Source: an uncultured Candidatus Saccharibacteria bacterium (GTDB lineage Bacteria > Patescibacteriota > Minisyncoccia > Phycocordibacterales > UBA2100). Taken from it: a DNA stretch of 64,000 nucleotides. The notes under the pieces are model-generated. The model did no database searches and was not told the origin of the DNA. It saw nothing but the letters and a program-made list of their open reading frames with translations. A program made the position numbers and the translations under genes. The DNA lies in assembly GCA_964471165.1 (NCBI GenBank), contig CAYYEX010000001.1, forward strand, positions 65,037 through 129,036, read 5' to 3'. Below, piece after piece: positions 831 through 37,261 of the stretch; position 1 is the stretch's first letter; every line of letters starts with the position of its first letter.

Positions 831-839
831 TACAACAAA

Positions 840-1037: not shown

Positions 1038-1058
1038 AGTATTAGTTGCAATTGATAA

Positions 1059-1262: not shown

Positions 1263-1265
1263 ATA

Positions 1266-3739: not shown

Positions 3740-3778
3740 CGAAGAGCCTGCGTTCTCGAACAAACATTTGAACACATT

Positions 3779-3822
3779 GAGGCTCTGCGGACACAACATC
3801 CGACAGAGCCTCTTTCTTTTGT
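3779..3822 (+). terminator. Rho-independent terminator after the parB-like gene
   Basis: GAGGCTCTG-N16-CAGAGCCTC hairpin followed by TTTCTTTTGTGTG. Confidence 0.6.
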
Positions 3823-3875
3823 GTGAGAACCAACGCGTCGAATCACGCACTTAGTGTTCGGTACGCGGTGGCGCG

Positions 3876-4208
3876 CTAGCGGTCCAGAATTCTGAGGCTT
3901 CTTTTTACCGTCACAAATACGTATGCCCATAAAAGGGGCAGCCATATCGGCATGATTCCAAGCAAGCTAGTTCGCGCAAATGTCTCGACGCCAGTGTGTA
4001 TGAACCACGCCTCGGATATAGATATGGCAATGAGGCCAACCACGGCCGCCAAGATGTCGTTGCGTTCACTTTTAAAACAGAGGAGCGCACAGATGCACAC
4101 AACGTAGACTGCAGCCAGTGCATAATCGTTTTGAATATGGGGTATGAGTCCAATCATGACGAAGATTGGAATTACATAGATGCAGATTTTTATTATCCTC
4201 GTACTCAT
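3876..4208 (-). CDS. hypothetical 3-TM membrane protein
   Basis: Hydrophobic ORF. Start placed at the internal Met (MSTRIIKI...) to avoid overlapping the NUDIX gene; the ORF could extend to 4238. Confidence 0.4.
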   Translation of the reverse strand: MSTRIIKICIYVIPIFVMIGLIPHIQNDYALAAVYVVCICALLCFKSERNDILAAVVGLIAISISEAWFIHTGVETFARTSLLGIMPIWLPLLWAYVFVTVKRSLRILDR

Positions 4209-4212
4209 AGTT

Positions 4213-4737
4213 CTACGAAAAACGGAGCGCTTCACCACTCAGAAGTTCAAAGCCGCGCATCATCGTAAGATACTCCGGGTCGTCGCCACTGTTGTGATTT
4301 GCGTACTCGCTGGTAACAATCTGCGCGCGTAGTTCTTTTACCTCGTCTTTCGAAAACCACCCGCATGTTGAGTGGTCCTCTGGGTGGATCATAACGTTCT
4401 CAATCGGGTCAGTGAATTGCGCAAAATATGTAACCTGTATCGAATGTGAGCCTTTTATGTGGTTCATGTAGGTGCACGTATAAAACGGGTCTCCCACGGC
4501 AACGCCCATACCAAGCTCCTCCTTAATCTCGCGCTTGAGCCCCAGCACGATATCTTCGCCAAAGTCGATATGCCCGCCCGGCAACTCGTACACGCCGGGG
4601 AGAAACTTTTTTGTGTCTGCACGCTTCGGGAGAAACACTTTGGTTACACCGTCGAACTTTGCGTGAATAAACGCACATGCGCTTATTACCTGCTGCCCAT
4701 GTGCTGGAACTTCACTGTCGTGCGAAATCTTGTTCAT
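4213..4737 (-). CDS. NUDIX hydrolase
   Basis: Nudix box [23 protein letters not shown] (GX5EX7REUXEEXGU). Confidence 0.8.
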
Positions 4738-4833
4738 AGGCGACTGAGTTGTTCCATTCTTTCTATTCTAGCGCAATTCAAACCGGTCACTTGGTATGAA
4801 GTGCAAGTAGACATAGAATTGAAACAAGAGCCT

Positions 4834-5208: not shown

Positions 5209-5798
5209 CGCAAAGCGGCAAAGCGGCGTCGTTCTCGCTCGAAGTCCGGGCGAACTTCGTCTTGAACCTCCGGAAAAAATATCTTTTTATTGAAATCCCT
5301 ATCTGTCTTCTCCAGTCCCCATTTCAAAATATCGGCCTTTGTCTCTCCTCGTGCTGTAAAGTTCTCCACCGCAAAATCATAAAAATCTGTTTGCAGGTGA
5401 ACTACCGCATCTGCAGTTGCCATTATCTTCCCCTCGAGGGTTCGAGGTGCATCCCCATCCCTGCAGCTGTGATATTTGATTGCATCGTCAACGATGAGCG
5501 TAATCTCTGCATCGGTAAATCCCGATAGTCGCAAAAGGCCCCGTGCAATGGCCATACTCTCCTGTTCGTGCCGCGGGTCTTCTCGCGACATAACGGCGTC
5601 GGCTACGTCGTGCAACATTGCCGCTGCTACTACCAAATCCACGCCCGCACCAAACCGCACGGCCAATTCCCTCGCCTTATCAGCCACCTTAAACACATGG
5701 CTCGTGTGCAAATAATCTGCCCAGTCTTTTGCTCGGCTCGTGTTCTTGTCTAGATACAAGGCATCAATCCGATCTTTAAGTGCCTCGATTCGATTCAT
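5205..5798 (-). CDS. HD-domain phosphohydrolase
   Basis: H...HD motif ([10 protein letters not shown]) and a downstream conserved D (ATADAVVH). Typical HD superfamily layout. Confidence 0.7.
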
Positions 5799-6211
5799 AC
5801 TTGGGGTAACCGCAGATACCTCTGATAAATCACACCAGTGTCCGTGCAGAGTTTGCCCTCCGTATACAACTGGTCAACTTCCTCTTTTTTCATCCACCCC
5901 GACCATTGCCATTCCGTCTCGTCTGTCTGCAGCGTGTCATCAGTCTCTGTAATATATGCATGCGACGTTTGTTGAAAATTCGGCATATCAAAGTCTTCTG
6001 TAAACAAGTACCGTATGGGTGTTTTTAAACCAGTCTCCTCAAACAATTCCCTTGCAGCAGCCTCTTGAGGCAGTTCCCCTTCGTCCACATGCCCGCCCGC
6101 ACCAATACCATATCTATTCGGAAACATTTTTTTAGATGCCAAACGCTGATGCATAAAATACTCACCCTGGGAGTTTTTTATAAAAATGATGACTACTTCG
6201 ACTTTGGCCAT
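5795..6211 (-). CDS. NUDIX hydrolase
   Basis: Nudix box GGHVDEGELPQEAAARELFEETG. Overlaps the HD gene by 4 nt, suggesting an operon. Confidence 0.8.
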   Translation of the reverse strand: MAKVEVVIIFIKNSQGEYFMHQRLASKKMFPNRYGIGAGGHVDEGELPQEAAARELFEETGLKTPIRYLFTEDFDMPNFQQTSHAYITETDDTLQTDETEWQWSGWMKKEEVDQLYTEGKLCTDTGVIYQRYLRLPQV

Positions 6212-6226
6212 AATGGTGCTGCCTGT

Positions 6227-6817
6227 TTAGCCTACATCCTCGACGAGCTTTTTCTCCCTCGTCCGGCGCGTGAGAATAAACAGCGTCATCAGTGAATTGG
6301 TCGTAATCATAGCAATTGAATGGAGCGTCGTGGCTATGTTGTAGGCCTGCAAAGAAAGCAACGCAAGAATATGCCGGAGCACGTTGGTACCGTACAAGAG
6401 CGGGGACTCAGTTTTTGGTTCCAACCATGTTTTACGAAGCGTTGGAATAAAGGCGACAACATCAATGGCAACAACCACAATAACCGACATTGTTGGGTCA
6501 TTCGTATAAATCCACGGAACAATACCTGCGAGCGCGATGGCAAGAAAGATTTTATCTGTTTTTGTTGGATTCTTGAATCCGTATTTGAGAGAAAGGAGAA
6601 AAATCATAATTGTGAAAATCTCTGAAGCGGCAGTAGGGAGTGCGCCAATGCCAGCACCTTTTGCAAGCTGCCCAAAGAACACAACGCCTGAGACAATCGA
6701 CCAAACAAACCACGTATACGCATGTGGCTCAATCCTCCCTTTCACCACATCAATCATGTACGGAACATTTCCCGCTATCGCGAGAAGCGCAGCAACAATG
6801 GCAATAGATTCTTTCAC
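6227..6817 (-). CDS. hypothetical polytopic membrane protein (196 aa)
   Basis: Six hydrophobic segments. No recognisable motif. Confidence 0.45.
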   Translation of the reverse strand: MKESIAIVAALLAIAGNVPYMIDVVKGRIEPHAYTWFVWSIVSGVVFFGQLAKGAGIGALPTAASEIFTIMIFLLSLKYGFKNPTKTDKIFLAIALAGIVPWIYTNDPTMSVIVVVAIDVVAFIPTLRKTWLEPKTESPLLYGTNVLRHILALLSLQAYNIATTLHSIAMITTNSLMTLFILTRRTREKKLVEDVG

Positions 6818-6828
6818 AAAGTAAGAAT

Positions 6829-7527
6829 CTATTTAGAAAGAACGAGCCAGTGGTGCTTGCAGCCGTAGTCTTTTCCGTTGAACTGTGTGACCTTTTCTAT
6901 CCGCTCCCACTTTTCTATCTTGAAGTCTTTGTAAACGCTACGTAATTCGTCCTCATCGAACGTCTTTTCAAATTTACCCGTCGGGTGGTGAAAAGCATTC
7001 TGCTGCTCTGCGGGGGCTGTCTGCATCATTTCTTTATGAAACTCGTCGTCGGTTGAAAGAAGATACGCCAGTAAATAACCACCTGGTTTGAGCACTCGAT
7101 GGAACTCACTGATTGCATATGCGCGGCCTTCGGGTGATTCGATGTCGGTCGAAGCAAAACAATCAATGGCAAAATCGAACGAATCCGTTTCGTAGTCCCA
7201 CGTTTTTGTGGCGTCTTGGACAATAAAATGTGCCCCCTCTATCTGAGCTGCAAATGCCCGTCGTTTGGCTTCTTCGATCGCAATCGGAGAAAAGTCGAAT
7301 CCATACATCTCAACACCCTTTGCAGCAAGCCACACAACATTTCTACCCTTGCCACACCCCATTTCAACACCGCGCACATTGTCTGTTCTACCTTCTGCCT
7401 TAAGGAGTCCCCAAAACTTTTTCACGCCACTCGAACCCTCATCGGAATCCATTTGTAATAAAACACTGGGAGAGGCATGCTCTGCATCCCATATTCTTTG
7501 CTGGTCCTCGTGTGTAAAGTTTTTCAT
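6829..7527 (-). CDS. class I SAM-dependent methyltransferase
   Basis: Motif I VEMGCGKGRN and motif post-I/II (YGFDFSP...DAT). Rossmann MTase fold. Confidence 0.75.
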   Translation of the reverse strand: MKNFTHEDQQRIWDAEHASPSVLLQMDSDEGSSGVKKFWGLLKAEGRTDNVRGVEMGCGKGRNVVWLAAKGVEMYGFDFSPIAIEEAKRRAFAAQIEGAHFIVQDATKTWDYETDSFDFAIDCFASTDIESPEGRAYAISEFHRVLKPGGYLLAYLLSTDDEFHKEMMQTAPAEQQNAFHHPTGKFEKTFDEDELRSVYKDFKIEKWERIEKVTQFNGKDYGCKHHWLVLSK

Positions 7528-7533
7528 AATTCG

Positions 7534-8139
7534 TTAAGACAAAGAATCGGAACTGGTTGATGATTCTAGAATAATGCTACAAATACTCTCAATAAGCAGC
7601 CCCGGGCCATCGGTTGAATTGTCCAGTACATGTGGACTGAATGACATGAATGTTTGCTCCTTGATATATGGCACGCTCCCCACTTCTTTTGGCACGAAGT
7701 CATCCGCCGATGCCTCGCCACGCAAGGAAAGACGCGAAATGCGCACCGCCTCGTCCACAGTGAGAAGAAATAAGTAGTCCGGTTTTCTGAGTGCGGTCTT
7801 CTTGAAATCTGGAACCAACGCTGCGTCCAGCCCACGCGCAATATGCTGGGCAACCGTGGAGTACACGTATCTGTCACAAATAACCCATGCATCCGTGAGC
7901 AGTGGCGTTATCTCTGCAGACTTGTTGAGTGCGCTCGCAACATAAAAAAAGAAACTCGCTTCCACGGTAGCATGAGCCTTTATGTATTCTTTTGCCGCAT
8001 TGAAGACACTGTTTCTATTCTCAATATCTTCATAGCGCACAGCGTTAATGCCGCGATTTTTGAGCTCGGTCACGAGAAGCGACGAAATTGTCGTCTTTCC
8101 GGTCCCATCAATCCCCTCGAATACTATTAATTTTCCCAT
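7534..8139 (-). CDS. tmk: thymidylate kinase
   Basis: MGKLIVFEGIDGTGKTT P-loop, DRY motif (CDRYVYS), lid region. Canonical dTMP kinase. Confidence 0.85.
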   Translation of the reverse strand: MGKLIVFEGIDGTGKTTISSLLVTELKNRGINAVRYEDIENRNSVFNAAKEYIKAHATVEASFFFYVASALNKSAEITPLLTDAWVICDRYVYSTVAQHIARGLDAALVPDFKKTALRKPDYLFLLTVDEAVRISRLSLRGEASADDFVPKEVGSVPYIKEQTFMSFSPHVLDNSTDGPGLLIESICSIILESSTSSDSLS

Positions 8140-9146
8140 AACATCTTTGCGATTTGGCGCGTGCGCTCCACGGTTTCTTTCGATGTTTGGCCATTCTCCT
8201 CCTCTCGAATGTATCGCGCCAAGCGTCGACCTACCTCTGCGTATGATTCCTGCATCACAACGTCTTCGTTGATGATGCCCGCCCTGAGTCGGTTTACGCC
8301 CATGCTGGTTGCTGAAGTAATCGTGCGCAGTAACGCGCCTTCTGCGGGAAATAGTTCTGACATTCTTCTCAGAATTTCGTAGTTTTCGATATCACGATTG
8401 TAGGAGACAGCACCACTTCCATGATTACTATCGTGCATTACGTGGTCAAAAAAGTCTGCAGAAGCCGCCATAAATGCCAGGTGGAGTGGATGGTGAATCG
8501 GGAGGTCAAACACGGGAAACGTTTCGAGTTTCAAATAAAATGGAATCGAACCTTTTTTCATTAGAAAATAAAGCTGGGACAGGCATACGTTGAACTTGCC
8601 ACTGCCTCCTCCAGGACTCAAGACGATTTGAATGGGCTTCACTGCATCAATAAACGAGTTTCTATCCAGATGATGAGCAATTTGAGTGGTGTTGGTATAG
8701 TCCTCTATCTCATAAAAGTAATGCACCTCGTTACCGCGAGCCTGAATGGTGCGGATAAAATTCTGAAGCCTTGTTTCGCTTTCCCAGCCCTGCAGCAGCC
8801 TCGTGAGCGCAACATGTTTTACTTTGAGGCCACGTTTTTCGAGCTCATTCAGTGAGCGCACAGTCTCGTCGTCGTATCGTGTTTTAAAATCACCACGTAT
8901 CCGTCCGCCAAGAATGTCCTTTGCAGATACACAAAAAATCGGCTCACTCTCGGGAAGCGAAAGGACAAGTTCGAGTTTCGCGTCCTCATGATACCCGGGC
9001 AGAACGCGAGCAGCGTGTCTGTCTTGTAGAATCTTCCCCCCAAACTCCACCACTAATGAATCCGTTTTACCCTCGACGGCAGCCCGAATGGCCGCTACTT
9101 GTGCCTCAATGTAGCGAGGTGTGTCGAACCCGATTCTATCGGTCAT
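8127..9146 (-). CDS. DUF1846 (UPF0371) family protein
   Basis: N-terminus ...LVVEFGGKILQDRHAARVLPGY resembles the conserved start of UPF0371/DUF1846 proteins. Shorter than typical members. Confidence 0.45.
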   Translation of the reverse strand: MTDRIGFDTPRYIEAQVAAIRAAVEGKTDSLVVEFGGKILQDRHAARVLPGYHEDAKLELVLSLPESEPIFCVSAKDILGGRIRGDFKTRYDDETVRSLNELEKRGLKVKHVALTRLLQGWESETRLQNFIRTIQARGNEVHYFYEIEDYTNTTQIAHHLDRNSFIDAVKPIQIVLSPGGGSGKFNVCLSQLYFLMKKGSIPFYLKLETFPVFDLPIHHPLHLAFMAASADFFDHVMHDSNHGSGAVSYNRDIENYEILRRMSELFPAEGALLRTITSATSMGVNRLRAGIINEDVVMQESYAEVGRRLARYIREEENGQTSKETVERTRQIAKMLWEN

Positions 9147-9202
9147 TGGGGAATCCTAGCACTGAGCACGTGGTTGGCGCCATTTTGTAGAGGTGTTTGA
9201 TG

Positions 9203-11089
9203 TTATCTGCAGATATTGATTTCTAAGTCGTCGTGGTAGTTCAGGCTCTGCAATTCAATCAAACGGGACAGTTTTTGGACCTCTACAGGATTTCCCATTT
9301 GCCACTTTTCAATTACAAGTATGTCCTCTCCTCCCTTTTCGATGCCAAGAATAACGGTTGAATGGATTTCTTGGAAAGATTCTCCGCGCCCGTTTGATAT
9401 AAGCAAAACACGCGACGCGGGCGCATTCGAAATACTTTCAATAATCTCTTTAACAATTCTGTTTGCGTGGTCTTTGGCCCCCTGCACACTCGCAAGTCCG
9501 CGAATCTCTGTGTGGGGAATCGCGATATGCTCGCCACTGTCATACATATCTTCTGTATATTCCTTCATGTCCTGCACAAATTCTTTCCCTTCGGCGCTCT
9601 CAAACATTTTGCTTACTTTTTCCTTGAATGCCTGTTCCCATTCATATTCCGACTCGAAATCCTCTAACTTTGGCTTCTCAACTGCCGGCGCAGTCGGTAC
9701 CGGCAAATCCAGGTCATCCCTGGCAATCGTGAGCATGAACGAATGGCAATCGTAGCTTTGCTCGTCATTCTTCGCATACCGAGCAGCAAGATGCTCGTTC
9801 AATGCGTTGAAATCTCTTGTCTCAAAACAATGTTCGGCTAATTTGTACGTTTCCTCAAGGCGCGGGGAAAGAGGCTCTAGGTATTCAACTTCGCCAGGAA
9901 TCGGTTCTGCTTCCGCGCGGCGAACACCCTCGCTGTCAAAGACATCGTCGTATGGCTGCCAACCGCGGTTACGCGTTTTCACAGACACGCCTGCACGTAC
10001 TTTAGTTCCACTATTGTCGTTCCAAAGTTTACTCAGATACTCCTGAGAATCCGGACGCAGGTCTTGAAAAAGCTTCCTGTTCGCCGCACCAATTGCGTTC
10101 TCACGCGAATTGTCTCCTGGCTTATTGTTGCTATTAACGAGCATTTGAGAGAGCTCGTGGTCGGAGGATTTGACAACACTTAATATTTTTTCCAAACCAG
10201 CATCTGTAAATGCATCCTTGATACTTTGGTCGAACAAATCACCGCCCCGGATATAGCCGCGCTTTATGCCCTCCCATATCTGTTCAACAGACGTTTCCGC
10301 AGCTTCTGCTAAATACTCCATAAAGATACGCACAAACCGCACTTCAGATTTGCGGTGAAATCCGTACTGAAAGAGCTCACTATTCGAACATGATATGTAC
10401 TTCTGCACATCATCCCGTGTTATCCCGAACCGGTCGGGACCGACTCTCCTCACGTATTCAACAAGCGTATCCTGCGTAATCATTTGGGTTATTCCCTCAT
10501 CGAGTATTTCCCCAAAAAACCGCCATGTTTCCAAAAGTAGGTTCTTTGTCTCTTCTTCATATACCCTATAGCCCGAAATTTCTCGCGTAGTGCTGTTTAT
10601 GAAGCTGGTGAGAAAGTGACCGATTTGCTCACGGCGCTGCAGTGCAATAGCGTGTGTCTCTTCGTGAATAACTATTTCCAACGCATTGATTCGCTTCAAT
10701 GCTTTAGTATCAATGCCAGGAACCGCAAAGTATCCTGTGCCCTTGAGTGGCTCTAAGTGCAGGGGCACACGCTCTAGCGCCAGGCCTTTCCCTTTACTAC
10801 GAGCGACTACAATTGTGTTGTCTTCCGGGTTGTAGTGCGCAGCGCCATACTCAATGTCTCCGACAAAAAAACGCTCTGCTCCAACAAAATTAATGTCTTT
10901 GGGATTCGCTCCACTCTTCTTATGCATTTCCTCAAAAATTTCACGAAGCGTTTTGAGGTCAACGGTTTCAAGAAAATTTGATACCCGCTCGTCTCTTTCG
11001 AGGCCGCGGCGTAATAGCTTTTCAACCGAAGGCGCCTTGCTATATCCGGTTCGCCCCGCTGGCCGTTCGTGTGATTGTGATTCTTTCAC
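9203..11089 (-). CDS. large acidic hypothetical protein with a single HExxH (HEETH) motif; possible zincin-like metallopeptidase domain
   Basis: 628-aa uninterrupted ORF. IVIHEETHAIAL contains HExxH. No other recognisable domain. Confidence 0.6.
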   Translation of the reverse strand: MKESQSHERPAGRTGYSKAPSVEKLLRRGLERDERVSNFLETVDLKTLREIFEEMHKKSGANPKDINFVGAERFFVGDIEYGAAHYNPEDNTIVVARSKGKGLALERVPLHLEPLKGTGYFAVPGIDTKALKRINALEIVIHEETHAIALQRREQIGHFLTSFINSTTREISGYRVYEEETKNLLLETWRFFGEILDEGITQMITQDTLVEYVRRVGPDRFGITRDDVQKYISCSNSELFQYGFHRKSEVRFVRIFMEYLAEAAETSVEQIWEGIKRGYIRGGDLFDQSIKDAFTDAGLEKILSVVKSSDHELSQMLVNSNNKPGDNSRENAIGAANRKLFQDLRPDSQEYLSKLWNDNSGTKVRAGVSVKTRNRGWQPYDDVFDSEGVRRAEAEPIPGEVEYLEPLSPRLEETYKLAEHCFETRDFNALNEHLAARYAKNDEQSYDCHSFMLTIARDDLDLPVPTAPAVEKPKLEDFESEYEWEQAFKEKVSKMFESAEGKEFVQDMKEYTEDMYDSGEHIAIPHTEIRGLASVQGAKDHANRIVKEIIESISNAPASRVLLISNGRGESFQEIHSTVILGIEKGGEDILVIEKWQMGNPVEVQKLSRLIELQSLNYHDDLEINICR

Positions 11090-11233
11090 ACGGCTATGAT
11101 ATCACCGCTCCTGTTAGTGATTGCTTCACCTGCAAGTACCATGCCTGCACCATACGAGGTTAGGCCTATGGCAACCTCCTGATATATAGTATTGCCATTG
11201 AGGTAAATACTTAAAAGAATAGGCGGCACCGCT

Positions 11234-11473
11234 ATGGATGAAACAGAACAGAATGAAGCAGAACAAACAACCGACAGTAACGGCAACACATTGCAAAATG
11301 GCGATTCGGTCCTCGTTATCAAGGACCTTAAGGTAAAGGGAAGTTCTGTCACGTTAAAAAAAGGAACCAAGGTAAAGAACATCCGTTTGACCGATTCTCC
11401 GGACGAGATAGAGGGCAATGTCGACAGCGTTCGCGGCCTTGTTCTTAAAACAGAATTCGTCAAAAAAGCGTAG
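11234..11473 (+). CDS. PhnA-domain protein (79 aa)
   Basis: [33 protein letters not shown]...KTEFVKKA matches the conserved C-terminal PhnA/YjdC domain. Confidence 0.7.
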
Positions 11474-11476
11474 CGG

Positions 11477-11537
11477 GAAGAGCCGCAAGGTTGTGAAGAG
11501 CCGCAAGGTTGTGAAGAGCCGCAAGGTTGAACCTTGC
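11477..11537. repeat. 18-bp tandem repeat (gaagagccgcaaggttgt) x3 ending in palindrome GCAAGGTTgaACCTTGC
   Basis: Direct reading: units at 11477-11494, 11495-11512 and 11513-11530. The last unit merges into a 7-bp-arm hairpin followed by GATTTTG. Confidence 0.8.
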
Positions 11538-11738
11538 GATTTTGACTCTACCCGCCCCCAATGAGATTTATTGCGTGAGCGACAGCGCGGCGCCGAGATA
11601 GTACGGCCAAATAACTACAGCAAGCACCCCGGACCAAAAACTTAGGTGCAGGTACCCGATTGTAAAAAGCCATGCGGCAACCCAGAAACCCCCTGATAAC
11701 GTATGATGCTCAATTTTTATTTTTTCCATACGTCTTTA

Positions 11739-12086
11739 CTATACTCCTTTTTCCCGTATACGTTGGTCACTCACTAAGAAAAGAATCCCTGTGAGCAGAA
11801 AAGGCGCACATAACATTGCGTTCACCCAAAACGAGTTACCGAGCAGAATGAAAGGAATGAGAGATACCATAATGAACATGTATCCTCCCAGTCGCTCGTC
11901 CTTCCAAGCCACGACGAGAACAGTGGCTAGCACTAGACTTGGGATATTGTGAACAAGAAAACCAACGAGTAAATTCGTGAGAGATACACCTGTTTCAAAT
12001 ACATCGAGCGAAAACAGGCTAATGAAAAGAATACCGAGGATTCCCAATATTCGGGGTGCCCAGTATAGCGCTTTGAGCATATCCAT
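11739..12086 (-). CDS. hypothetical 4-TM membrane protein
   Basis: Hydrophobic ORF with no competing frame. Confidence 0.45.
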   Translation of the reverse strand: MDMLKALYWAPRILGILGILFISLFSLDVFETGVSLTNLLVGFLVHNIPSLVLATVLVVAWKDERLGGYMFIMVSLIPFILLGNSFWVNAMLCAPFLLTGILFLVSDQRIREKGV

Positions 12087-12132: not shown

Positions 12133-12840
12133 TTAACCGGCAGAATTTAACTCCTGGTCGATTCTTGCGATAAGATTCACTGCCAATTGCTTCAAGGCAT
12201 CGAACTCCTGATTATTAAAACGAGTCCGCTCGCTTTCCAGTCTTTCAGCGAGCACGGTCAACGTCTGCCGAAGCATGTAAGGGCTCCAGTAAATATAGGG
12301 AGTACCATCAATCATATACAAATTACTTTTCTCGTCGCCCTCCTTCTTTCCGTACACATACTGCTCGCCCTTAGCGAGGTCTGCAAGAAAAGACGAGTGT
12401 TTATCGTAGGCATTCGTATAATAGCGAATCAACTTTCTTCCAAGATCTAAATACGCGTCGCTCTCTTGCTGCATATTCGACTGTTCATCTGGCGTTACAT
12501 TTGAAATCACCGCAAAGACTTCCTTTCCGCTCTTGTCACCAATTCGTGCTTCTGCCACGACGAACGATATCGGCGAATCAATACCATACCCGCGAAGCTC
12601 ATCAAAATGCCTCTTAGATAGCGCTGCAAATTCTTCCGCTGTGACTTCACCTGACTCTTTCGCGTGCCACCGCCTTTTTTCAATCATGCTCTCCCAGTGA
12701 AGTGGGCGTATGACGAGGTCTTTCCGATTCTCTAATTGCAGTAGTAAGTCATCTTTCGTTTTATCCCAATGTTCAACATGAGGCACGAGCCTGTGCGAAA
12801 ATGCGGTCACCTCTGGAATCTTTTTTAATCTCTCGCTCAT
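12133..12840 (-). CDS. hypothetical protein (235 aa); first gene below the cassette-like array
   Basis: Clean ORF with soluble composition. Preceded (5' on minus) by a copy of the conserved intergenic box. Confidence 0.5.
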   Translation of the reverse strand: MSERLKKIPEVTAFSHRLVPHVEHWDKTKDDLLLQLENRKDLVIRPLHWESMIEKRRWHAKESGEVTAEEFAALSKRHFDELRGYGIDSPISFVVAEARIGDKSGKEVFAVISNVTPDEQSNMQQESDAYLDLGRKLIRYYTNAYDKHSSFLADLAKGEQYVYGKKEGDEKSNLYMIDGTPYIYWSPYMLRQTLTVLAERLESERTRFNNQEFDALKQLAVNLIARIDQELNSAG

Positions 12841-12930
12841 TCACATCATCGTATCAAGAATTGCAGTGAGTCGTCGACACTCTTCAAGACACGCCGTGGC
12901 CAACTCAAGTTAAACGGTGGTTCGCATACA

Positions 12931-12960
12931 TTGCTGAGTGCTCGGTACGAAGTTGGAACT
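12931..12960 (-). repeat. conserved intergenic box, copy R6 (degenerate)
   Basis: gctgagtgctcggtacgaagttggaact; shares ...ggtacgaagttggaac with the other copies. Confidence 0.7.
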
Positions 12961-12970
12961 ATTTTACAGC

Positions 12971-13654
12971 CTAGTGGTGGGAATCTCGAATCGTGAGAAA
13001 TGACTGCCATGTAATCCGCAAGATTACGATAGTGATAATCAAGCCGATGACCGGGTCGGCAATCTGGAGTCCGAAAAAGACAAGCGCAGCACTCGCAACA
13101 ACGGCAAGACTCACATACCCGTCGGCGTGCGCATGCGCGCCATCTGCGATAAGCGCAGGGCTATTGAGTCGTTTCCCCGCACGTGTGCGTATCACGGCCG
13201 CAACTTCGTTACCCGCGTACCCGATGATTCCAGAAATGAGCAAGGCAAACAAATGGTCAACGGTTTGCGGATGAATAAAGCGTAAAATTGCCTCGTAACC
13301 GGCGACGCATGCGCTCACAAAAATTATAAATACAACGAAGTATCCTGCGTATTTTTCCATCACCTTGCTTTGTAACAAAAAAGCTGCGCCAAGCGGCAGA
13401 GCGGTCAGCGCATCTCCAAAGTTATGAATCAGGTCAGCAAGTAGCGCGATGGAATTTGTCGAGAAAAAGATAATCGCTTGGATTCCTGCCGTGGCCAAAA
13501 GTACTACAAGACTCAAGCTTACCGCCCGTACCCCCTCTTTTGATCGCGTGATGGATTCGTGCACCAACCCATGGCTGTGCCCATGTTCGTCGTGCGAATG
13601 ATGGCCATCATGAGGATGGTCGTGATCGTGATTGTGTTCGTGAGAATCGTGCAT
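12971..13654 (-). CDS. cation diffusion facilitator (CDF) family transporter, TM domain only (227 aa)
   Basis: His-rich N-terminus (HDHDHPHDGHHSHDEHGHSHG), 5-6 TM helices, LADLIHNFGDAL motif. Lacks the usual ~80-aa C-terminal cytoplasmic domain. Confidence 0.7.
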   Translation of the reverse strand: MHDSHEHNHDHDHPHDGHHSHDEHGHSHGLVHESITRSKEGVRAVSLSLVVLLATAGIQAIIFFSTNSIALLADLIHNFGDALTALPLGAAFLLQSKVMEKYAGYFVVFIIFVSACVAGYEAILRFIHPQTVDHLFALLISGIIGYAGNEVAAVIRTRAGKRLNSPALIADGAHAHADGYVSLAVVASAALVFFGLQIADPVIGLIITIVILRITWQSFLTIRDSHH

Positions 13655-13680
13655 ATTCAGATCAGAATACCTTAAAAAAC

Positions 13681-13733
13681 TCGACTGGGTGTTTGGTTTA
13701 GCCTGAGCTTGTCGGACGGGACAAAGTTGGAAC
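13681..13733 (-). repeat. conserved intergenic box, copy R5 (with 22-nt insertion)
   Basis: tcgactgggtgtttggt[ttagcctgagcttgtcggacggg]acaaagttggaac. Confidence 0.75.
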
Positions 13734-13738
13734 TTTTC

Positions 13739-14467
13739 TTAAACCTCAGGACTGAACTTATTACGGCTCCAGTTCCATAGAACGGGATGCATTTCGACGG
13801 GAGACACGGTGCCACCATTAAGCAAATCTTTCCATACCTCGGCTACTTCCAACGACGTCATGGTCGGTTTTGCAAGCCCGAGTTTGACCGAACACTGCAA
13901 AACATGCGTGTCCGGAATGATGGATATCTCTGACATATTTTTAAACTTTGCGTCCGTGTAATGCGAAAGGATGTAAAGCCAATAGTTCGCCATCTTCGGT
14001 CCGCTGATATAGGGAAAGTCTTTCCGCATATCTTGCTGAATGATTTTATGGATATTCACAACATCCCAGTCAGCAGTTGTAAAAAGTTCACGTGGATCGC
14101 TTTTGAAATGGGAGCTGAACGCGTTCGATACAGCCATCCATATATCAGTATGCTTATTGAGTTGTAGCGCGAGCTTATGCTTCAGTAAGTCTTTTTGCAC
14201 TTTCTCCCGCGCAGCCTTTGCTACAATTTCCGGAAAGAAAAGATAATTTGTTTCCGAGTCATTCCATGTTTTAAGTGCTGCCGCCCACATTGCCGGCGAT
14301 TGTCGTTGAAAATTGATACTCGGCGGCAATGTGAAATAGAGATAATTTTCTCGACTCCCCTTTTCTAAGCCGGGATTTACTTCATGTTGCGCAAGCATGG
14401 GAATTGCGCCGTCCAAAAAAAGTTGGTGCAGTTTGAGAACCCGCTCCAACTGTTCCGACTTATTCAT
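13739..14467 (-). CDS. hypothetical protein; weak HhH-GPD-like signature
   Basis: Start set to the internal Met (MNKSEQ...) because the upstream part of the ORF overlaps the conserved intergenic box. ...ISIIPDTHVLQCSVKLGL is reminiscent of the PxDTHVxR helix-hairpin-helix motif of EndoIII-type glycosylases. Confidence 0.4.
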   Translation of the reverse strand: MNKSEQLERVLKLHQLFLDGAIPMLAQHEVNPGLEKGSRENYLYFTLPPSINFQRQSPAMWAAALKTWNDSETNYLFFPEIVAKAAREKVQKDLLKHKLALQLNKHTDIWMAVSNAFSSHFKSDPRELFTTADWDVVNIHKIIQQDMRKDFPYISGPKMANYWLYILSHYTDAKFKNMSEISIIPDTHVLQCSVKLGLAKPTMTSLEVAEVWKDLLNGGTVSPVEMHPVLWNWSRNKFSPEV

Positions 14468-14483
14468 AGAATTACTATACCTG

Positions 14484-14516
14484 ACCGGACTGGGTGTTTG
14501 GTACGAAGTTGGAACC
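14484..14516 (-). repeat. conserved intergenic box, copy R4
   Basis: gaccggactgggtgtttggtacgaagttggaacc, starting 3 nt after the upstream gene's stop codon. Confidence 0.85.
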
Positions 14517-14520
14517 GGAG

Positions 14521-14985
14521 TCAAGTATTTACAGGAATGCCCTTCACAAGCTTTTTCCCATCTGAGGTAAGGATGGTCTTCCCCGCAGGGTTGGCCCAGT
14601 CCGTAAAACGCCACCAGATTGGAGTGAACATAAAGAAAACATCGTCCGGATGTTTACCTTCCTTACTGGGGAACTTAGCAAAATATACCTTTTTCAACAT
14701 TTCTTCGTCCGCGCTAAGTAACCGCGCCACACCGTCCAACTGAAAGGTTTTCTCTTTACCTCCCGGTACTTCTTCTAGACCAATTACAAAAGAAGCCCGC
14801 ACCAACTCCTTTTGAAGCAGAGGTTCTACTTTTCTGTATGTTGGGCTTGTGAGGAATATAAACGTCAAAGGGTCGTCATGGTGAGCAAAATGCACAGTAG
14901 CCGCATGTGGAGAGCCATCGGTCATCTCGACAGCTATCACGCCGACCCGCTGAGTGTTTATGTATGCAAGAACTTCAGGATTCAT
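14521..14985 (-). CDS. pyridoxamine 5'-phosphate oxidase-like (PNPOx/FMN-binding split-barrel) family protein
   Basis: N-terminal ...AYINTQRVGVIAVEMTDGSPHAATVHFAHHDD... pattern typical of general-stress PNPOx-like proteins. Confidence 0.6.
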   Translation of the reverse strand: MNPEVLAYINTQRVGVIAVEMTDGSPHAATVHFAHHDDPLTFIFLTSPTYRKVEPLLQKELVRASFVIGLEEVPGGKEKTFQLDGVARLLSADEEMLKKVYFAKFPSKEGKHPDDVFFMFTPIWWRFTDWANPAGKTILTSDGKKLVKGIPVNT

Positions 14986-15005
14986 ATTTATGTTCCACTT
15001 TAATT

Positions 15006-15034
15006 TGCTGGGTGTTTGGTGCGAAGTTGGAACC
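15006..15034 (-). repeat. conserved intergenic box, copy R3
   Basis: tgctgggtgtttggtgcgaagttggaacc, flanked by short inverted repeat GTTCCA / TGGAAC. Confidence 0.85.
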
Positions 15035-15039
15035 TTTTT

Positions 15040-15468
15040 TTAAGACACAGACTCAAACGTCGGGTCATCTTTCGTAAGAATCTCCAATACGTCATCATCG
15101 CCTAGCAAGAAATGCTTCATACCCAAGCAATCATTAACCCCTCGATTCTCTGCATTTAGCCAGTCGATGTAGGGACTTGCAGTTGTATAGCGCAGACCGG
15201 ATATAGGCGACGGACTTTTACTGATGTTCCATGTATCCAAAAGATACGACTCGTTCGTAAATCGGTACGCAAACGGACCCGATATTCTTTCAAAAGTAAT
15301 CTTAATCGTTTCAGCAGATACATTACTTCGATCTTTGAGTTCCACGATCAGACTCACATCATCAATGGACACTTTTTCTATCTTCCACATCGGTACGAAC
15401 TCCCCTTCAAAAGACTTGTTCTCCCAAATGATTTGTCTTGGATTTTCCATGTTCATATCTCTGCTCAC
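15040..15468 (-). CDS. hypothetical protein (142 aa; GTG or internal ATG start)
   Basis: Clean ORF bounded on both sides by copies of the intergenic box. Confidence 0.45.
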   Translation of the reverse strand: MSRDMNMENPRQIIWENKSFEGEFVPMWKIEKVSIDDVSLIVELKDRSNVSAETIKITFERISGPFAYRFTNESYLLDTWNISKSPSPISGLRYTTASPYIDWLNAENRGVNDCLGMKHFLLGDDDVLEILTKDDPTFESVS

Positions 15469-15480
15469 ATGTTACCAAAA

Positions 15481-15512
15481 CCGGACTGGGTGTTTGGGAC
15501 GAAGTTGGAACC
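15481..15512 (-). repeat. conserved intergenic box, copy R2
   Basis: ccggactgggtgtttgggacgaagttggaacc, 5 nt after the upstream gene's stop codon. Confidence 0.85.
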
Positions 15513-15515
15513 CCA

Positions 15516-15917
15516 TTAAAGAACGACCTCCCCAGTTTCTCGTAACTTTTTGAGAAACTCTTCGTCCCGAACTACCACCCTAAACTCGGACGGGTCCGGT
15601 AGTTTCTCAAGATTCGGATTACTGTATGTGACAATCTCTAATATGATAACTCTTCCATCTACGACATGTAGAAGTATTTCTAGCGGTCCGCCATCCCGGG
15701 GATTAATTAGACCCTCTACCGGGACCCTGTCTAGGACGTTCGCTAGCACCTGTGACTTCGTAAGAATATCTATAGTAAGTGACTTATCATCCCACTCTCT
15801 TACTTCGCAATCAGATATTTGTTCGCGAATTGCGTCGCGACCCGGGAAGTCATTCTCGAGCAGCTTATCGAGAACCCTTATCTCATCTTGATTTAATGGT
15901 CGATAATTGTCAGACAT
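15516..15917 (-). CDS. hypothetical acidic protein (133 aa)
   Basis: Clean ORF, no motif recognised. Confidence 0.45.
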   Translation of the reverse strand: MSDNYRPLNQDEIRVLDKLLENDFPGRDAIREQISDCEVREWDDKSLTIDILTKSQVLANVLDRVPVEGLINPRDGGPLEILLHVVDGRVIILEIVTYSNPNLEKLPDPSEFRVVVRDEEFLKKLRETGEVVL

Positions 15918-15919
15918 AT

Positions 15920-15978
15920 CATTGCTTAAAAAACTGGCTGGGCGTTTGGTACGAAGTTGGTACTACATTTAAGCAATG
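15920..15978 (-). repeat. conserved intergenic box, copy R1, embedded in an 11-bp perfect inverted repeat
   Basis: CATTGCTTAAA-aaactggctgggcgtttggtacgaagttggtactaca-TTTAAGCAATG. Confidence 0.85.
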
Positions 15979-15984
15979 ACAACG

Positions 15985-16299
15985 CTACGTCCGGATTGTC
16001 TCCACGTACCCTGGTTTCTTAAAGGCTGTCCAAAGGAGGCCGATGGAAATAGCTGTGAGAAAAATGGCCATGGCAATATTTGGCCCCGGTACATGTTTTG
16101 TCTCAAGGCATGTGGGACCCCGATATTTTCCCCCAGGCGTCATACGCACACAAATTTCGTGATGATCAAATTTGAATGCATATATGGACACAACAAAGCA
16201 AGCGAGGGCAATGATCACAAGCAAGCTCTGCAGAGACCTCGGCACTTTCCTACTCCGCAACATTACATGGATGATGCGCCCGCACGGATGAAAAATCAA
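15985..16299 (-). CDS. hypothetical 2-TM membrane protein (104 aa)
   Basis: Hydrophobic segments; preferred over the competing plus-strand ORF 15976..16332, whose composition is poor. Weak call. Confidence 0.3.
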   Translation of the reverse strand: MIFHPCGRIIHVMLRSRKVPRSLQSLLVIIALACFVVSIYAFKFDHHEICVRMTPGGKYRGPTCLETKHVPGPNIAMAIFLTAISIGLLWTAFKKPGYVETIRT

Positions 16300-16300
16300 T

Positions 16301-16317
16301 CTGGGGGACTTGGAATC
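16301..16317 (-). repeat. 17-nt exact copy of tRNA-Gln 3' end (GATTCCAAGTCCCCCAG), 182 nt downstream of the tRNA
   Basis: ctgggggacttggaatc at 16301-16317 equals 16499-16515. A second degenerate copy ...cttgtcccccag lies at ~16330-16345. Confidence 0.85.
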
Positions 16318-16498
16318 CCCATCGACTCATAATATCAGCCGTCGCTTCTGGGGGACAAGGAGCGCTCGCATGAGCTCGCTTTTTGAGAACCCACGGTTCT
16401 CAACGTGTCTTCGCACTGCTCTCCTCCACGGGAAACTACCGTTTCCCGCCCCCTTCACTTCCAAGTCCCGCAGGACTCGTTCATTTCATTCTCTCGTG

Positions 16499-16569
16499 CT
16501 GGGGGACTTGGAATCGAACCAAGATACGCAGCTTCAAAGGCTGCTGTCCTACCGTTAGACGATCCCCCA
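16499..16569 (-). tRNA. tRNA-Gln (anticodon UUG)
   Basis: Reverse complement TGGGGGATCGTCTAACGGTAGGACAGCAGCCTTTGAAGCTGCG...GGTTCGATTCCAAGTCCCCCAG. U1-A72 pair, G73 discriminator, anticodon loop CTTTGAA. CCA not encoded. Confidence 0.85.
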
Positions 16570-35628: not shown

Positions 35629-36708
35629 TCACGAGGACACGGAGTAATCGATTTCTACCTCGCTTCCCTTGTCGCGAAAATGATTCTCGGAGAGCGTGCT
35701 GAGCGCCTTGGCGTGTCCCACAGGCAGCAGTACCGTAAAAACGGTGCCTCGTGGCACAGCGCTCTGGACCGCGATTTTCCCCTTGTGCTCCTTTACCAGC
35801 TCGGAAACTATCGTGAGGCCCAGGCCGGTTGTGCCAGAGACTCGTTTACGCGAACTATCACCGCGATAATAGGGCTCAAAAATACGTGACAAATGCTCGC
35901 GTGAAATACCAGTACCGGAATCGCGCACAGAGAGCTCCACATAGCCCGGATGCACGGGTACAACCTTGATGACAACGAGGCCGTCTTTTGGTGAGTGAGT
36001 CATCGCGTTCTTTACGATATTCATCACAATCTGTTCAAGTGCTCCCGAATTACCCCACACCAAGCTGTTCTTGGTGATATGCAAATCCACCTTGGTGGAG
36101 CGTTTTTCTTTGAGTGCTCGGAGTGTGCCGAGCGCTGCTCGAACCACATCGCCTAAATCGACGTTGCTAAACTTGGCTGCTTCTAAGCGAAATATCGATG
36201 AGAGCGAGAGGCGGTTATTTATGATGTCGGAAGTGCGTTCTAATTCGACGTCGATGCTTCGCATCATTGCAGCCTCAGCAGGAGATATATCCGAAGACAT
36301 GAGCGCTACTTCCATTGTGGTTTTAATGATTGAAAGCGGCGTACGCAGCTCATGCGCAAGATTAGATATGAACTCCTTTTGTGAACGGAGCGTTTGTTCT
36401 GCATGGCCAAGTGCGACACTCATAATCAAGTATCCAAAAATTGTGCTCACGAGGATTACCCCAACTGAAATCAAAAAAACGGTCTCATTACGCATGAGAA
36501 ATAAGAGCCCTGCGACCGTTGTAATGTAGCCGCCGAGTAAGAGCCCAATAGTGGATTCCACCCTAAAAAAGGGGTCGGAGCGGTATCTATGTGCGTAGGC
36601 GATAGCCCACACCACGAATCGTTTCCAGTATCCCCTCAGCGCCCGCGCCATCGAGTTTTCGTCGTAGATTTTTGACATGAACGTCGACGATATTACTGAA
36701 TCCAACAT
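35629..36708 (-). CDS. sensor histidine kinase (2 TM + HisKA + HATPase_c)
   Basis: H-box ISNLAHELRTPLS, N-box, G-boxes GTGLGLTIV. The ORF's 5' part overlaps the upstream response-regulator gene by up to 122 nt, so the start is uncertain (alternatives at 36678 or 36651). Confidence 0.8.
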   Translation of the reverse strand: MLDSVISSTFMSKIYDENSMARALRGYWKRFVVWAIAYAHRYRSDPFFRVESTIGLLLGGYITTVAGLLFLMRNETVFLISVGVILVSTIFGYLIMSVALGHAEQTLRSQKEFISNLAHELRTPLSIIKTTMEVALMSSDISPAEAAMMRSIDVELERTSDIINNRLSLSSIFRLEAAKFSNVDLGDVVRAALGTLRALKEKRSTKVDLHITKNSLVWGNSGALEQIVMNIVKNAMTHSPKDGLVVIKVVPVHPGYVELSVRDSGTGISREHLSRIFEPYYRGDSSRKRVSGTTGLGLTIVSELVKEHKGKIAVQSAVPRGTVFTVLLPVGHAKALSTLSENHFRDKGSEVEIDYSVSS

Positions 36709-37261
36709 AGTTGAAGTCCCATAAGTGACTGAGTAAGTCTTCTCTGTTAACGACTTTGTCCTGGTGTCGCATGAAATATTCCAGTAGTCCGAATTCTTTC
36801 AATGTAAGGAGAAGGTCACGTGTACCATACGCTACCTTGCGCGTGCCCGGGTCGAGACTCAACTTTCCCGCAGTAAGTACCTGTGGCAAAACCTCGTTTG
36901 GTCTGCGCATGAGTGCATGGATGCGCGCATTGAGCTCAGAGAACGCAAACGGCTTTACGAGGTAATCGTCTGCCCCGGAAGAAAGTAGTTGCACTTTGGT
37001 TTCTGTTTCTGAGCGTGCAGAAAGAATGAGTACTGGTACTCGTATTTCTTTTTCGCGCATTTGTTTGCAAACCTCAAGACCGTCCATGGTCGGCAACATG
37101 AGATCGAGCACAACCAAATCGTAATCGGTGCGATGCAGCGAAATTCGAGTGAGCCCCTTTGCCCCGTCATCTACAACATCGACCGTGTATCCTTGTAGCT
37201 CGAGGCCGCGTTTGATTACTTCGGAAAGTTTCTTTTCGTCTTCGATAAGGAGTATTTTCAT
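36587..37261 (-). CDS. OmpR-family response regulator (REC + winged helix)
   Basis: MKILLIEDE...DLVVLDLMLP...LILSA...DDYLVKPF receiver domain, C-terminal trans_reg_C (RLRT end). Confidence 0.85.
   Translation of the reverse strand: MKILLIEDEKKLSEVIKRGLELQGYTVDVVDDGAKGLTRISLHRTDYDLVVLDLMLPTMDGLEVCKQMREKEIRVPVLILSARSETETKVQLLSSGADDYLVKPFAFSELNARIHALMRRPNEVLPQVLTAGKLSLDPGTRKVAYGTRDLLLTLKEFGLLEYFMRHQDKVVNREDLLSHLWDFNYVGFSNIVDVHVKNLRRKLDGAGAEGILETIRGVGYRLRT

Follow-up and report, generated by a model that had tools for sequence, protein, structure and literature searches.

A tRNA-Gln-anchored array of small gene cassettes with a shared box in a Saccharibacteria genome: a probable integron-like capture array

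A run of small accessory genes downstream of a tRNA-Gln gene, six of them closed by copies of one conserved box, is probably an integron-like capture array, in which the box would recombine with the 3' end of tRNA-Gln or with another box through a recombinase acting in trans. The array lies in a 64-kb window, the whole stretch of DNA analysed here, from an uncultured Candidatus Saccharibacteria bacterium. It is not an integron by definition, and no description of such an array was found in the literature searched. Its unit, the cassette, starts at the base after CCCAG(C) and comprises a short leader (in some cassettes with a -10 element), as a rule a single small accessory gene up to its stop codon, and the box. 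The original prediction of a site-specific cassette array beside a tRNA has gained comparative evidence (a box shared between loci, CCCAG(C) junctions and variable relatives), while the recombination mechanism is one that we infer, because no recombinase was identified.

On the minus strand, the box reads A-N4-GGTTCCAACTTCG-YA-CCAAAC-N-CCCAG-C; it is 28-33 nt long, with CCCAG(C) as its own end, and is present in six copies from 12933 to 15964. A 26-nt query (GTTCCAACTTCGTACCAAACACCCAG), allowing up to 3 mismatches, retrieves five minus-strand copies (15938-15963, 15486-15511, 15008-15033, 14490-14515 and 12934-12959), with no matches expected from 100 dinucleotide shuffles. R1 (15937..15964) has 2 mismatches to the query, R2 (15485..15512) and R3 (15007..15034) match it within this limit, and R4 (14489..14516) is identical to it. 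R5 (13685..13734) is split, a 20-nt insert (13698-13717) separating its left half (13718-13734) from its right half (13685-13697), and the degenerate R6 (12933..12960) has 3 mismatches and scores 18 bits with nhmmer. The six copies and the co-directional genes reported earlier are therefore confirmed, all boxes being on the minus strand and none elsewhere in the 64 kb. The six fall within 3.1 kb, and the other 61 kb of the window and 20 kb of added flanks are free of boxes, so that genome-wide occurrence, named beforehand as a sign of a general promoter element, was not seen; nor is there the genome-wide scatter of the usually palindromic REP, MITE or other dispersed intergenic repeats, all six copies being in one array.

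In the window, every box copy starts 3-10 nt past the stop codon of an ORF on the minus strand, and its end is 17-93 nt from the next start codon, rather than 15-60 nt as first described. A box had been placed after each of seven genes; this stands for six, and the seventh co-directional gene (12133..12840, minus strand, 235 aa) is followed by none. Cassette 1 (15985..16300) encodes a small predicted membrane protein (ORF 15985..16299) and, like the cassettes that follow, is on the minus strand. The gene of cassette 2 (15516..15917, 133 aa) has a weak, sub-threshold match to DUF6984 in Pfam, and those of cassette 3 (15040..15468, 142 aa) and cassette 5 (13739..14467, 242 aa) match no Pfam family. 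Pfam agrees with the PNPOx-like assignment of the cassette 4 gene (14521..14985, 154 aa; PF01243, E = 5e-10) and with a CDF transporter lacking its C-terminal domain in cassette 6 (12971..13654, 227 aa), where the match covers the cation-efflux membrane domain only (PF01545, E = 7e-22, residues 47-219); the HhH-GPD-like protein that had also been proposed drew no Pfam match. The GC content of the array region is 44-49%, against about 53%.

Upstream of the boxes and on the same strand lies a tRNA-Gln gene (anticodon TTG; 16498..16569, minus strand; ARAGORN; Rfam tRNA 61.9 bits) that ends in ...CCAAGTCCCCCAGC, and we propose this 3' end as the anchor of the array and its primary insertion site. 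Repeat analysis delimits, between the tRNA and the first cassette, a non-coding 'A element' of about 180 nt (16318..16497, minus strand), in which the tRNA 3' end recurs twice, inverted at 16459-16473 and as a partial direct copy at 16347-16361. The A element matches no Rfam family; its relatives follow tRNA-Gln in loci L025 and L036 and a box in locus L013. A putative promoter, so named because of its consensus match (16329..16358, minus strand; TTGTCC, 18 nt, TATTAT, TG upstream), points into the array, and its -10 part is kept in L013 (TGATATCAT). Repeat analysis also revealed a perfect, displaced 17-nt copy of the tRNA-Gln 3' end (GATTCCAAGTCCCCCAG; 16301..16317, minus strand), and cassette 1 begins directly after the CCCAG of this copy. 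L013, L025 and L036 likewise contain genuine displaced copies of their own tRNA-Gln 3' end.

At least 25 further distinct contigs contain the box, and the taxonomically labelled ones belong to Patescibacteria (Paceibacterota, Saccharibacteria, Nomurabacteria). Among 185,579 species genomes scanned there were 12 genuine loci (10 in labelled Patescibacteria-group taxa, 2 unlabelled) and 2 further matches that are high-GC chance hits inside coding sequence; a metagenome scan contributed 24 more box loci, and scans of phage and plasmid collections gave zero matches. The A at box position -5 is 96% conserved, and conservation of the box core is inflated because the loci were collected by pattern match. 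Wherever a distinct locus includes a tRNA (15 of 15), it is tRNA-Gln (TTG or CTG), and the boxes are downstream of it on the same strand. The same placement holds for 44 of 48 boxes, the other 4 forming one inverted sub-array in L020. Housekeeping genes (e.g., dnaX, dus, guaB) lie upstream of the arrays. The cargo is diverse (NUDIX, GNAT, methyltransferases, HEPN_AbiU2, DUF5677, NADAR, HAD and others), and among the genes nearest the tRNA are those for peptide deformylase, 8xMP, HEPN_AbiU2, DUF5677 and an inositol phosphatase. Over all loci the box mostly starts -1 to +14 nt from the stop codon, and box-to-box spacing has a median of 566 nt (range 232-2764 nt) with a gene in each interval, which is not the layout of a CRISPR (28-37 nt repeats, 25-45 nt spacers). 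The box score becomes lower the further a box lies from the tRNA (rho = -0.51, p = 3.5e-4), an age gradient that may be partly biased because one perfect box served to retrieve each locus.

Comparison of the loci shows that either the tRNA-Gln 3' end or a box can form the left junction of a cassette, the one standing in for the other. Cassette 1 has 77.6% nucleotide identity to L013:5412-5712, which lies deep in a Saccharibacteria array; the homology runs from directly after CCCAG to the stop codon and box, whereas the left neighbour is the displaced tRNA 3' end in the window and a degenerate box in L013. Likewise, the A element stands behind tRNA-Gln in L025 and behind a box in L013, and a 75-nt leader with a promoter comes after the tRNA in L008 but after boxes in L030 and L035. 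Moreover, L005 has one additional gene-plus-box between the tRNA and a 25-nt segment shared with L038, where the segment adjoins the tRNA directly, and between cassettes of L004 and L030 there is 80% identity over the box-to-box interval, while their flanks are unrelated. In four independent comparisons, CCCAG(C) marks the limits of the homology. One relative retains the flanks but carries another set of genes and zero boxes; the conserved gene order among relatives that was to count against a recombination array is thus not what we find. Independent samples of this genome share the same cassette order, no gain or loss of a single cassette was observed for it at strain level, and no circular cassette contigs were seen.

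These junctions also bear on an unlikely alternative, in which the box serves as a portable stretch of homology, and RecA recombination between boxes, or between tRNA-Gln genes, swaps the intervening genes with DNA taken up by natural competence of Patescibacteria, no dedicated recombinase being involved. Competence-related genes (DprA, TfoX_N) are present near the array on the source contig, no recombinase is found near any array, tRNA-Gln genes are 76-94% identical between array-bearing lineages, and the 28-33 conserved nucleotides lie near the lower size limit of RecA pairing. However, in at least three independent cases one cassette starts on a tRNA end in one locus and on a box in another, and there the two share just CAGC to CCCAGC, far too short for such pairing. 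Homologous exchange also leaves unexplained the strict one-directionality of the arrays, the position of the box against the stop codon and its mimicry of the tRNA-Gln 3' region.

The box consensus aligns with the 3' 23 nt of tRNA-Gln better than 5000 shuffles do (P < 0.001); the two have A-N4-GGTTC...CCAA...CAGC in common, and in the tRNA-Gln genes inspected the A has the same offset before GGTTC as in the boxes. A conserved box segment of about 5 nt has no counterpart in the tRNA, and the box does not covary with the host tRNA, keeping one consensus throughout. Both properties speak against boxes as decayed att scars of serial tRNA-targeting islands (tycheposon, Islander-type) that once carried integrases and have lost them, an origin that we regard as quite doubtful. 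The true displaced tRNA-Gln 3' ends, those of the window (16301-16317 and 16347-16361) and of the three other loci, would suit such an origin, for they start in the T-loop, where classical integrases reportedly cross over. In addition, tRNA-anchored islands with scattered partial tRNAs are a known precedent (10.1101/2020.12.28.424599), and the present array resembles these islands and tycheposons in growing beside a specific tRNA, in newcomers apparently pushing older material outward and in having tRNA-3'-related, att-like repeats. Nevertheless, a single box consensus persists although the T-arms and acceptor ends of tRNA-Gln differ (e.g., CCCGCAGC in L005 and CCGGCAGC in L035), whereas the real displaced copies match the tRNA of their own host. 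Tycheposons, moreover, are multi-kb elements with their own tyrosine or large serine recombinase and often replication genes, and their repeats copy the host tRNA; here each unit holds about one gene, no integrase or integrase fragment is found in the 37 loci, none stands at the tRNA-proximal end, and direct repeats of the host tRNA are confined to the A element.

The box itself forms no hairpin and lacks the dyad symmetry of typical core sites of tyrosine and serine recombinases; its position matrix shows two direct GTNCCAA heptamers, 11 nt apart, and no inverted arms. The copy-specific, attC-like inverted repeats described earlier are not a genuine trait of the element: R1 is the sole copy in the window with a strong inverted repeat around it (12-nt arms, 15919-15930 and 15968-15979), and of the six spacers only that of R1 gives a fold that beats shuffled sequence (z = -3.9), the other five having z between -1.9 and +1.5 whichever strand is folded. 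Complementarity between the two flanks, or between box and flank, is the same as in shuffled controls for a set of 57 non-redundant boxes drawn from all loci (p = 0.47, 0.53, 0.26). A shared promoter or operator, the alternative first offered, fares no better. The -10-like hexamers that follow the boxes are mildly enriched (26/56 versus 19.2 +/- 3.2), but their offsets range from 1 to 37 nt, not the fixed spacing to a -10 element of a sigma-70 promoter or operator, and terminator-like and promoter-like sites show neither regional enrichment nor coincidence with boxes.

Hence it is also improbable that the box is primarily an RNA or transcription signal (3'-UTR processing, stability, termination or a tandem-site operator) and the modularity secondary. 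Its location at the stop codon of each gene and the hexamer enrichment would agree with such a role, as would the layout of the heptamers, which we take to resemble OmpR/PhoB-type binding sites; the window also codes for a response regulator of the OmpR type (36587..37261). Against this, there is no secondary structure or flank complementarity and no Rfam family match, many next genes begin within about 10 nt of the box, and the box is found in a single locus per genome, always tied to tRNA-Gln. An operator would, in addition, govern the unrelated neighbouring cassette and leave the tRNA-proximal cassette without one, and the exchange of tRNA ends for boxes at junctions would go unexplained.

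For capture by a recombinase, the preferred reading, the enzyme was sought directly. No integrase was found within about 84 kb here or in 36 other loci (stretches of 1-15 kb each), and the precomputed Pfam annotation, which spans about 84 kb of the source contig, lists no recombinase. In the window and the 36 loci, phmmer with a XerD probe gave no match at E < 0.1, resolvase probes were negative, and Pfam scans of neighbouring genes found no recombinase; a very divergent enzyme could escape these searches. These searches and the unfolded box uphold the earlier statement that neither an intI-like integrase nor a canonical attC is present in the window. Transposition of IS200/IS605 elements by the HUH enzyme TnpA involves a tnpA gene, subterminal hairpins at both ends and insertion 3' of a short target; insertion 3' of CCCAG and an element end at CCCAG fit this, the hairpins are absent, and the search for HUH genes is that of the neighbouring-gene Pfam scans only.

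In the mechanism that we propose, a free cassette, probably a one-box circle, would be joined to the chromosome by a recombinase that reads both the box and the similar tRNA-Gln 3' region, with strand exchange within or beside the shared CAG(C). Each new entry at the tRNA would push older cassettes outward, where their boxes would decay, and recombination of box with box would excise or reshuffle cassettes; the recombinase would act in trans. Expression may come from cassette-borne promoters or by read-through from the tRNA/A-element side. By analogy with the integron, the tRNA-Gln end would correspond to attI and the box to attC, although the box is a linear, asymmetric site, conserved in sequence rather than folded.

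Among the nearest known systems are integrons, above all sedentary chromosomal ones, and clusters of attC sites without an integrase, known as CALINs (Cury et al., 2016; PMC4889954). With these the array shares its one direction, its co-oriented, mostly single, small and unrelated accessory genes with one site directly after each, discrete units with a fixed junction (CCCAG(C) here), a fixed primary site at the head with apparent proximal insertion and outward decay, and the types of cargo (GNAT, NUDIX, methyltransferases, defence-like genes and many without known role). In contrast, no IntI or adjacent intI is found here, the box is a 28-33 nt linear asymmetric site and not a 57-141-nt imperfect palindrome (R''-L''...L'-R') read in folded, single-stranded form, cassettes are joined at CCCAG|C instead of G|TTRRRY, the head is a tRNA-Gln 3' end and not attI beside intI, and many cassettes have their own -10 element.

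In staphylococci, SCC composite islands too insert serially behind a conserved gene, at the 3' end of rlmH (orfX), with short direct repeats that mimic the gene end, and members without recombinase genes can be moved in trans. Ccr large serine recombinases mobilise these islands, whose lengths run from kilobases to tens of kilobases; here no Ccr gene was found, and host group and site sequence differ. The pdif modules of Acinetobacter plasmids and IMEX are likewise small modules with sites of about 28 bp served by a host recombinase in trans. In their dif-type sites a 6-bp spacer separates two inverted 11-bp arms, and the orientation alternates from one site to the next, whereas the box has direct heptamers in place of inverted 11-bp arms with a 6-8-bp spacer, lacks dyad symmetry and keeps one orientation.

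Finally, a candidate eroded box (GCCACCGCGTACCGAACACTAAG; 3850..3872, minus strand) lies 3 nt past the stop codon of 3876..4238; it is a weak candidate, under the nhmmer threshold and without a match in a half-box search. Because it stands at the far end of a low-GC, co-directional run of accessory genes, the array may once have extended over about 3.85-16.3 kb.

The array is headed by a tRNA-Gln(TTG) gene (16498–16569, minus strand), and from 16569 down to 12133 on that strand about 200 nt of non-coding DNA are followed by seven co-directional ORFs. A search with GTTCCAACTTCGTACCAAACACCCAG at up to three mismatches returned five copies of the box, the ~30-nt repeat that follows the array genes, all on the minus strand (15938–63, 15486–511, 15008–33, 14490–515 and 12934–59), where none was expected by chance. 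With no copy elsewhere in the 64-kb window, the box is confined to a single array at tRNA-Gln and is not scattered genome-wide, in line with the original prediction. A sixth copy, R5 (13685–13734, minus strand), is split by a 20-nt insert (GTCCGACAAGCTCAGGCTAA, 13698–13717, minus strand) and was recovered by half-box searches; its left half stops at box position 17 and its right half resumes at position 15, and the interruption could have been left when an imprecise deletion joined two adjacent boxes. Every copy in the window starts 3–10 nt past a stop codon. All seven genes had been described as trailed by a box, which holds for six of them but not for 12133..12840. A candidate eroded box lies 3 nt past the stop codon of 3876..4238, so the array may formerly have been longer. 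The GC content is 44–49% from about 4 to 16 kb, as against ~53% in the rest, and the cargo includes PNPOx and cation-efflux domains (Pfam). Small accessory-type genes, mostly co-directional, extend past the recognisable boxes and beyond the left end of the window (window 1–12000; L051:10900–20462 on a compared contig), including two NUDIX genes as well as HD, methyltransferase, thymidylate kinase, DUF1846, His_Phos, YbaK-like, PMSR, PAP2, VIT1, MGMT-like and TfoX_N genes; no boxes were detected in this run. At 11477–11530, in a 478-nt gap after the small ORF 11568..11729, an 18-nt unit, GAAGAGCCGCAAGGTTGT, is repeated three times in tandem, and a terminator-like hairpin (11520–11538, plus strand) overlaps its last copy.

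The consensus of 57 non-redundant boxes is A(-5, 96%)-N4-GGTTCCAACTTCG-Y-A-CCAAAC-N-CCCAG-C, the conservation of its core being inflated by the retrieval of loci through a pattern match. The box holds two direct GTNCCAA heptamers, with starts 11 nt apart, and has no dyad symmetry. The attC-like inverted repeats thought to surround the boxes were not borne out: when folded against shuffles, only the R1 spacer, nearest the tRNA, stood out (z = -3.9), the other five window spacers being no better than shuffled sequence on either strand, and flank-to-flank and box-to-flank pairing over the 57 boxes was the same as in shuffled controls. An attC-like hairpin was rejected on both grounds, and a known RNA family because no Rfam family matched at the boxes. 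The box could instead be a shared promoter or operator, or an RNA signal, the alternative that the original prediction had offered. This explanation fails because structure is absent, because promoter geometry is not fixed (offsets of 1–37 nt), and because the box would control the adjacent, unrelated cassette; as neither promoters nor terminators are enriched, a general promoter or terminator was also rejected. The box shares AACTTCGTA with loxP but has no inverted arm, and this likeness is regarded as a coincidence. The consensus does resemble the last 23 nt of tRNA-Gln (GGTTC...CCAA...CCCAGC): for three tRNAs the alignment beat all 5000 shuffles and for a fourth P was 0.0006, and the tRNA-Gln genes inspected also carry an A at -5 before GGTTC. 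Because tRNA-Gln ends differ between genomes (CCCGCAGC in locus L005 and CCGGCAGC in L035) while the box consensus remains unchanged, CAGC is the sole sequence always common to box and tRNA.

The box is not peculiar to this genome. A degenerate pattern scanned against 185,579 species, one genome apiece, matched 14 loci, where some 0.3 chance matches would be expected under uniform base composition, as estimated from the pattern degeneracy and the size of the collection. Two of the matches are high in GC, lie within coding sequence and lack the GGTT prefix; the other 12 are complete GGTTCC...CCCAG boxes in intergenic DNA, ten of them labelled as Paceibacterota, Saccharibacteria, Nomurabacteria or Patescibacteria group and two unlabelled. 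A metagenome scan contributed 24 additional loci, and a profile made from the box copies uncovered more boxes, of a more degenerate kind, within these loci (about 11 in L002, and four or five each in L009, L013, L016 and L030). Viral contigs, GenBank phages and PLSDB plasmids held no box, and a phage or plasmid carrier was therefore rejected. In each of the 15 distinct loci with a tRNA gene, ARAGORN placed a same-strand tRNA-Gln (TTG or CTG) upstream of the boxes; loci lacking a tRNA are mostly contigs of 1–3 kb or have insufficient upstream sequence. Within the tRNA-holding loci 44 of 48 boxes are downstream and co-oriented, and the other four form a single inverted sub-array in L020. The far side of the tRNA is occupied by housekeeping genes (dnaX and dus; guaB in the window). 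The finding is real and lineage-wide in Patescibacteria.

Boxes are separated by a median of 566 nt, and the cargo across loci is diverse and accessory (NUDIX, GNAT, methyltransferases, HEPN_AbiU2, DUF5677, NADAR, CYTH, HAD and peptide deformylase). Cassette 1 (15985–16300), the first after the tRNA, is 77.6% identical to L013:5412–5712, and the homology begins exactly past CCCAG and stops at the stop codon and box; upstream of this junction the window has its own displaced tRNA 3' end (16301–16317) and L013 a degenerate box. The A element, the non-coding segment between tRNA-Gln and the first cassette, is ~170 nt long and stands directly after tRNA-Gln in L025 and after a box (L013:4149–4179) in L013. 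A 75-nt leader with TTTGATATAAT begins right past CCCAGC in three loci, where the sequence ahead of it is the tRNA (L008), a good box (L030) or a degenerate box (L035). RecA-mediated exchange on box homology would also move genes, but 4–7 common bases are too few for it to link a tRNA end with a box, and that swap is present in at least three separate comparisons. In L005 exactly one gene and its box lie between tRNA-Gln and a 25-nt segment that abuts the tRNA in the related L038, and L004:7151–7781 and L030:10108–9484 share 80% identity over their box-to-box length, between flanks that are unrelated. The farther a box lies from the tRNA, the lower its quality (rho = -0.51, p = 3.5e-4), as expected if insertion is proximal and decay distal, although the trend may owe something to retrieval bias. 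Conservative site-specific recombination is the best-supported model, and mechanisms of this class have good support: a free cassette would recombine through its box, by sequence, with the tRNA-Gln 3' end or with a resident box, strand exchange falling within or beside the common CAG(C). Recombination of this kind would account for exact junctions, uniform box orientation, stop-codon-to-box packing, a box resembling the tRNA 3' end and the decay gradient; each of the rivals fails on at least one point. The array may still be active. Among 5.8 billion proteins, cassette 1 has two homologues only, the one informative context repeating the gene order of L013, and no circular cassette contigs were found. 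In L006, two identical boxes (6679–6709 and 7520–7550) lie ~840 nt apart with the same A-like non-coding sequence behind each, a pattern suggesting that a box-bounded unit was recently duplicated in tandem.

The A element (~160–200 nt; no Rfam match) is found at 16300–16497 of the window (minus strand) and at L013:4180–4355, L025:3649–3821 and L036:6893–7108. Its flanks are tRNA-Gln and a displaced copy, 14–17 nt long and starting in the T-loop, of the host's own tRNA 3' end, the mark of a classical integrase event; in the window there are two such partial copies and one inverted copy. Its 3' part, AGCGACGGCTGATATYATGA, is conserved between the window and L013 and looks, from its sequence, like a candidate outward-facing TG-extended -10 promoter into the cassettes. 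The boxes themselves might be decayed scars of ordinary integrase-bearing islands. Scars, however, would be expected to agree with the tRNA of their host, as is true of the real displaced copies, whereas the boxes keep their own consensus. Such scars should also be accompanied by integrase remnants, yet the window, 20 kb of added flanks and 36 other loci yielded no tyrosine or serine recombinase. This search, which agrees with the lack of an intI-like integrase first noted for the window, combined phmmer with XerD and resolvase probes and Pfam (window genes, conserved neighbours, 48 cassette proteins, 10 large neighbouring proteins and 10 tRNA-proximal proteins), together with precomputed Pfam tables for the source contig to 10 kb past each window end. 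On this search a cis-encoded recombinase was rejected, and the array would be served by one encoded elsewhere.

The array functions like an integron, but two defining features, IntI and a folded attC, are not present. With tycheposon-type islands it has tRNA anchoring and outward growth in common; those islands carry recombinases, whereas here none is element-borne, the units are of one gene and the repeat is not a tRNA copy. A literature search with motif strings and for cassette or integron-like arrays in Patescibacteria, covering sources other than subscription journals, found no description, and the finding is probably undescribed. In Patescibacteria, genomes are very small and recognised mobile elements few, but accessory gene content varies widely. 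We propose, tentatively and at slightly less than an even chance, that these bacteria own a previously undescribed gene-capture platform, in which single-gene cassettes with a linear, asymmetric 28–33-nt site mimicking the tRNA-Gln 3' end are inserted at that end by a recombinase encoded off-locus, which may belong to a new family or be a host enzyme put to another use; it would be an integron analogue that evolved independently in tiny-genome bacteria, its cassettes exchanged between class-level lineages. If so, the platform would be a concrete mechanism for accessory gene variation in Patescibacteria, and the integron concept would widen to a site read by sequence, not fold. The array points to a recombinase worth seeking, and genetic tools could use the box and tRNA-Gln pair as a natural landing pad in these bacteria, which are hard to manipulate.

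Comparison of syntenic regions, as originally suggested, showed gene content that does differ between relatives. L044 (GCA_021733565.1, contig JAKFZD010000002.1), the closest relative that is informative, lacks the system entirely; it keeps the flank order dprA-serS-dus-dnaX-ykuD-guaB, but its tRNA-Gln (14664–14735) is inverted relative to the window, facing guaB, and it has no boxes and another 4-kb gene set, of small accessory genes in mixed orientation, up to a DUF2975 homologue. At strain level no variation was seen, two other samples of the same organism carrying an identical cassette order; another relative's contig stops short of the array. Three Logan contigs of the same organism (L039, L041 and L042; independent assemblies from two or three sequencing runs) break within the tRNA-Gln/A-element segment, L041 and L042 beginning at the same A-element position, CGGGAAACGGTAGTTTCCCG, and L039 stopping ~160 nt upstream of guaB; the breaks may reflect repeated tRNA 3' ends or population variation at that point.

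Nuclease genes also occur beside tRNA-Gln. Small stand-alone GIY-YIG genes (~80–150 aa) adjoin it or form cassettes in five distinct loci (L008:1546–1788 and 1946–2197; L013:299–769; L014:252–512; L018:161–400; L030:11708–11989); being absent from the window, they were rejected as the mobilising nuclease and are regarded as frequent passengers. In L020:2210–3020 (the same sequence as in L014 and L029) a LAGLIDADG endonuclease gene (2285–2983, minus strand) lies between an intact tRNA-Gln and a tRNA-Gln D-arm fragment (3004–3019), an arrangement suggesting that a homing endonuclease inserted next to or within the tRNA gene; farther on, the opposite strand carries a second, degenerate box array.
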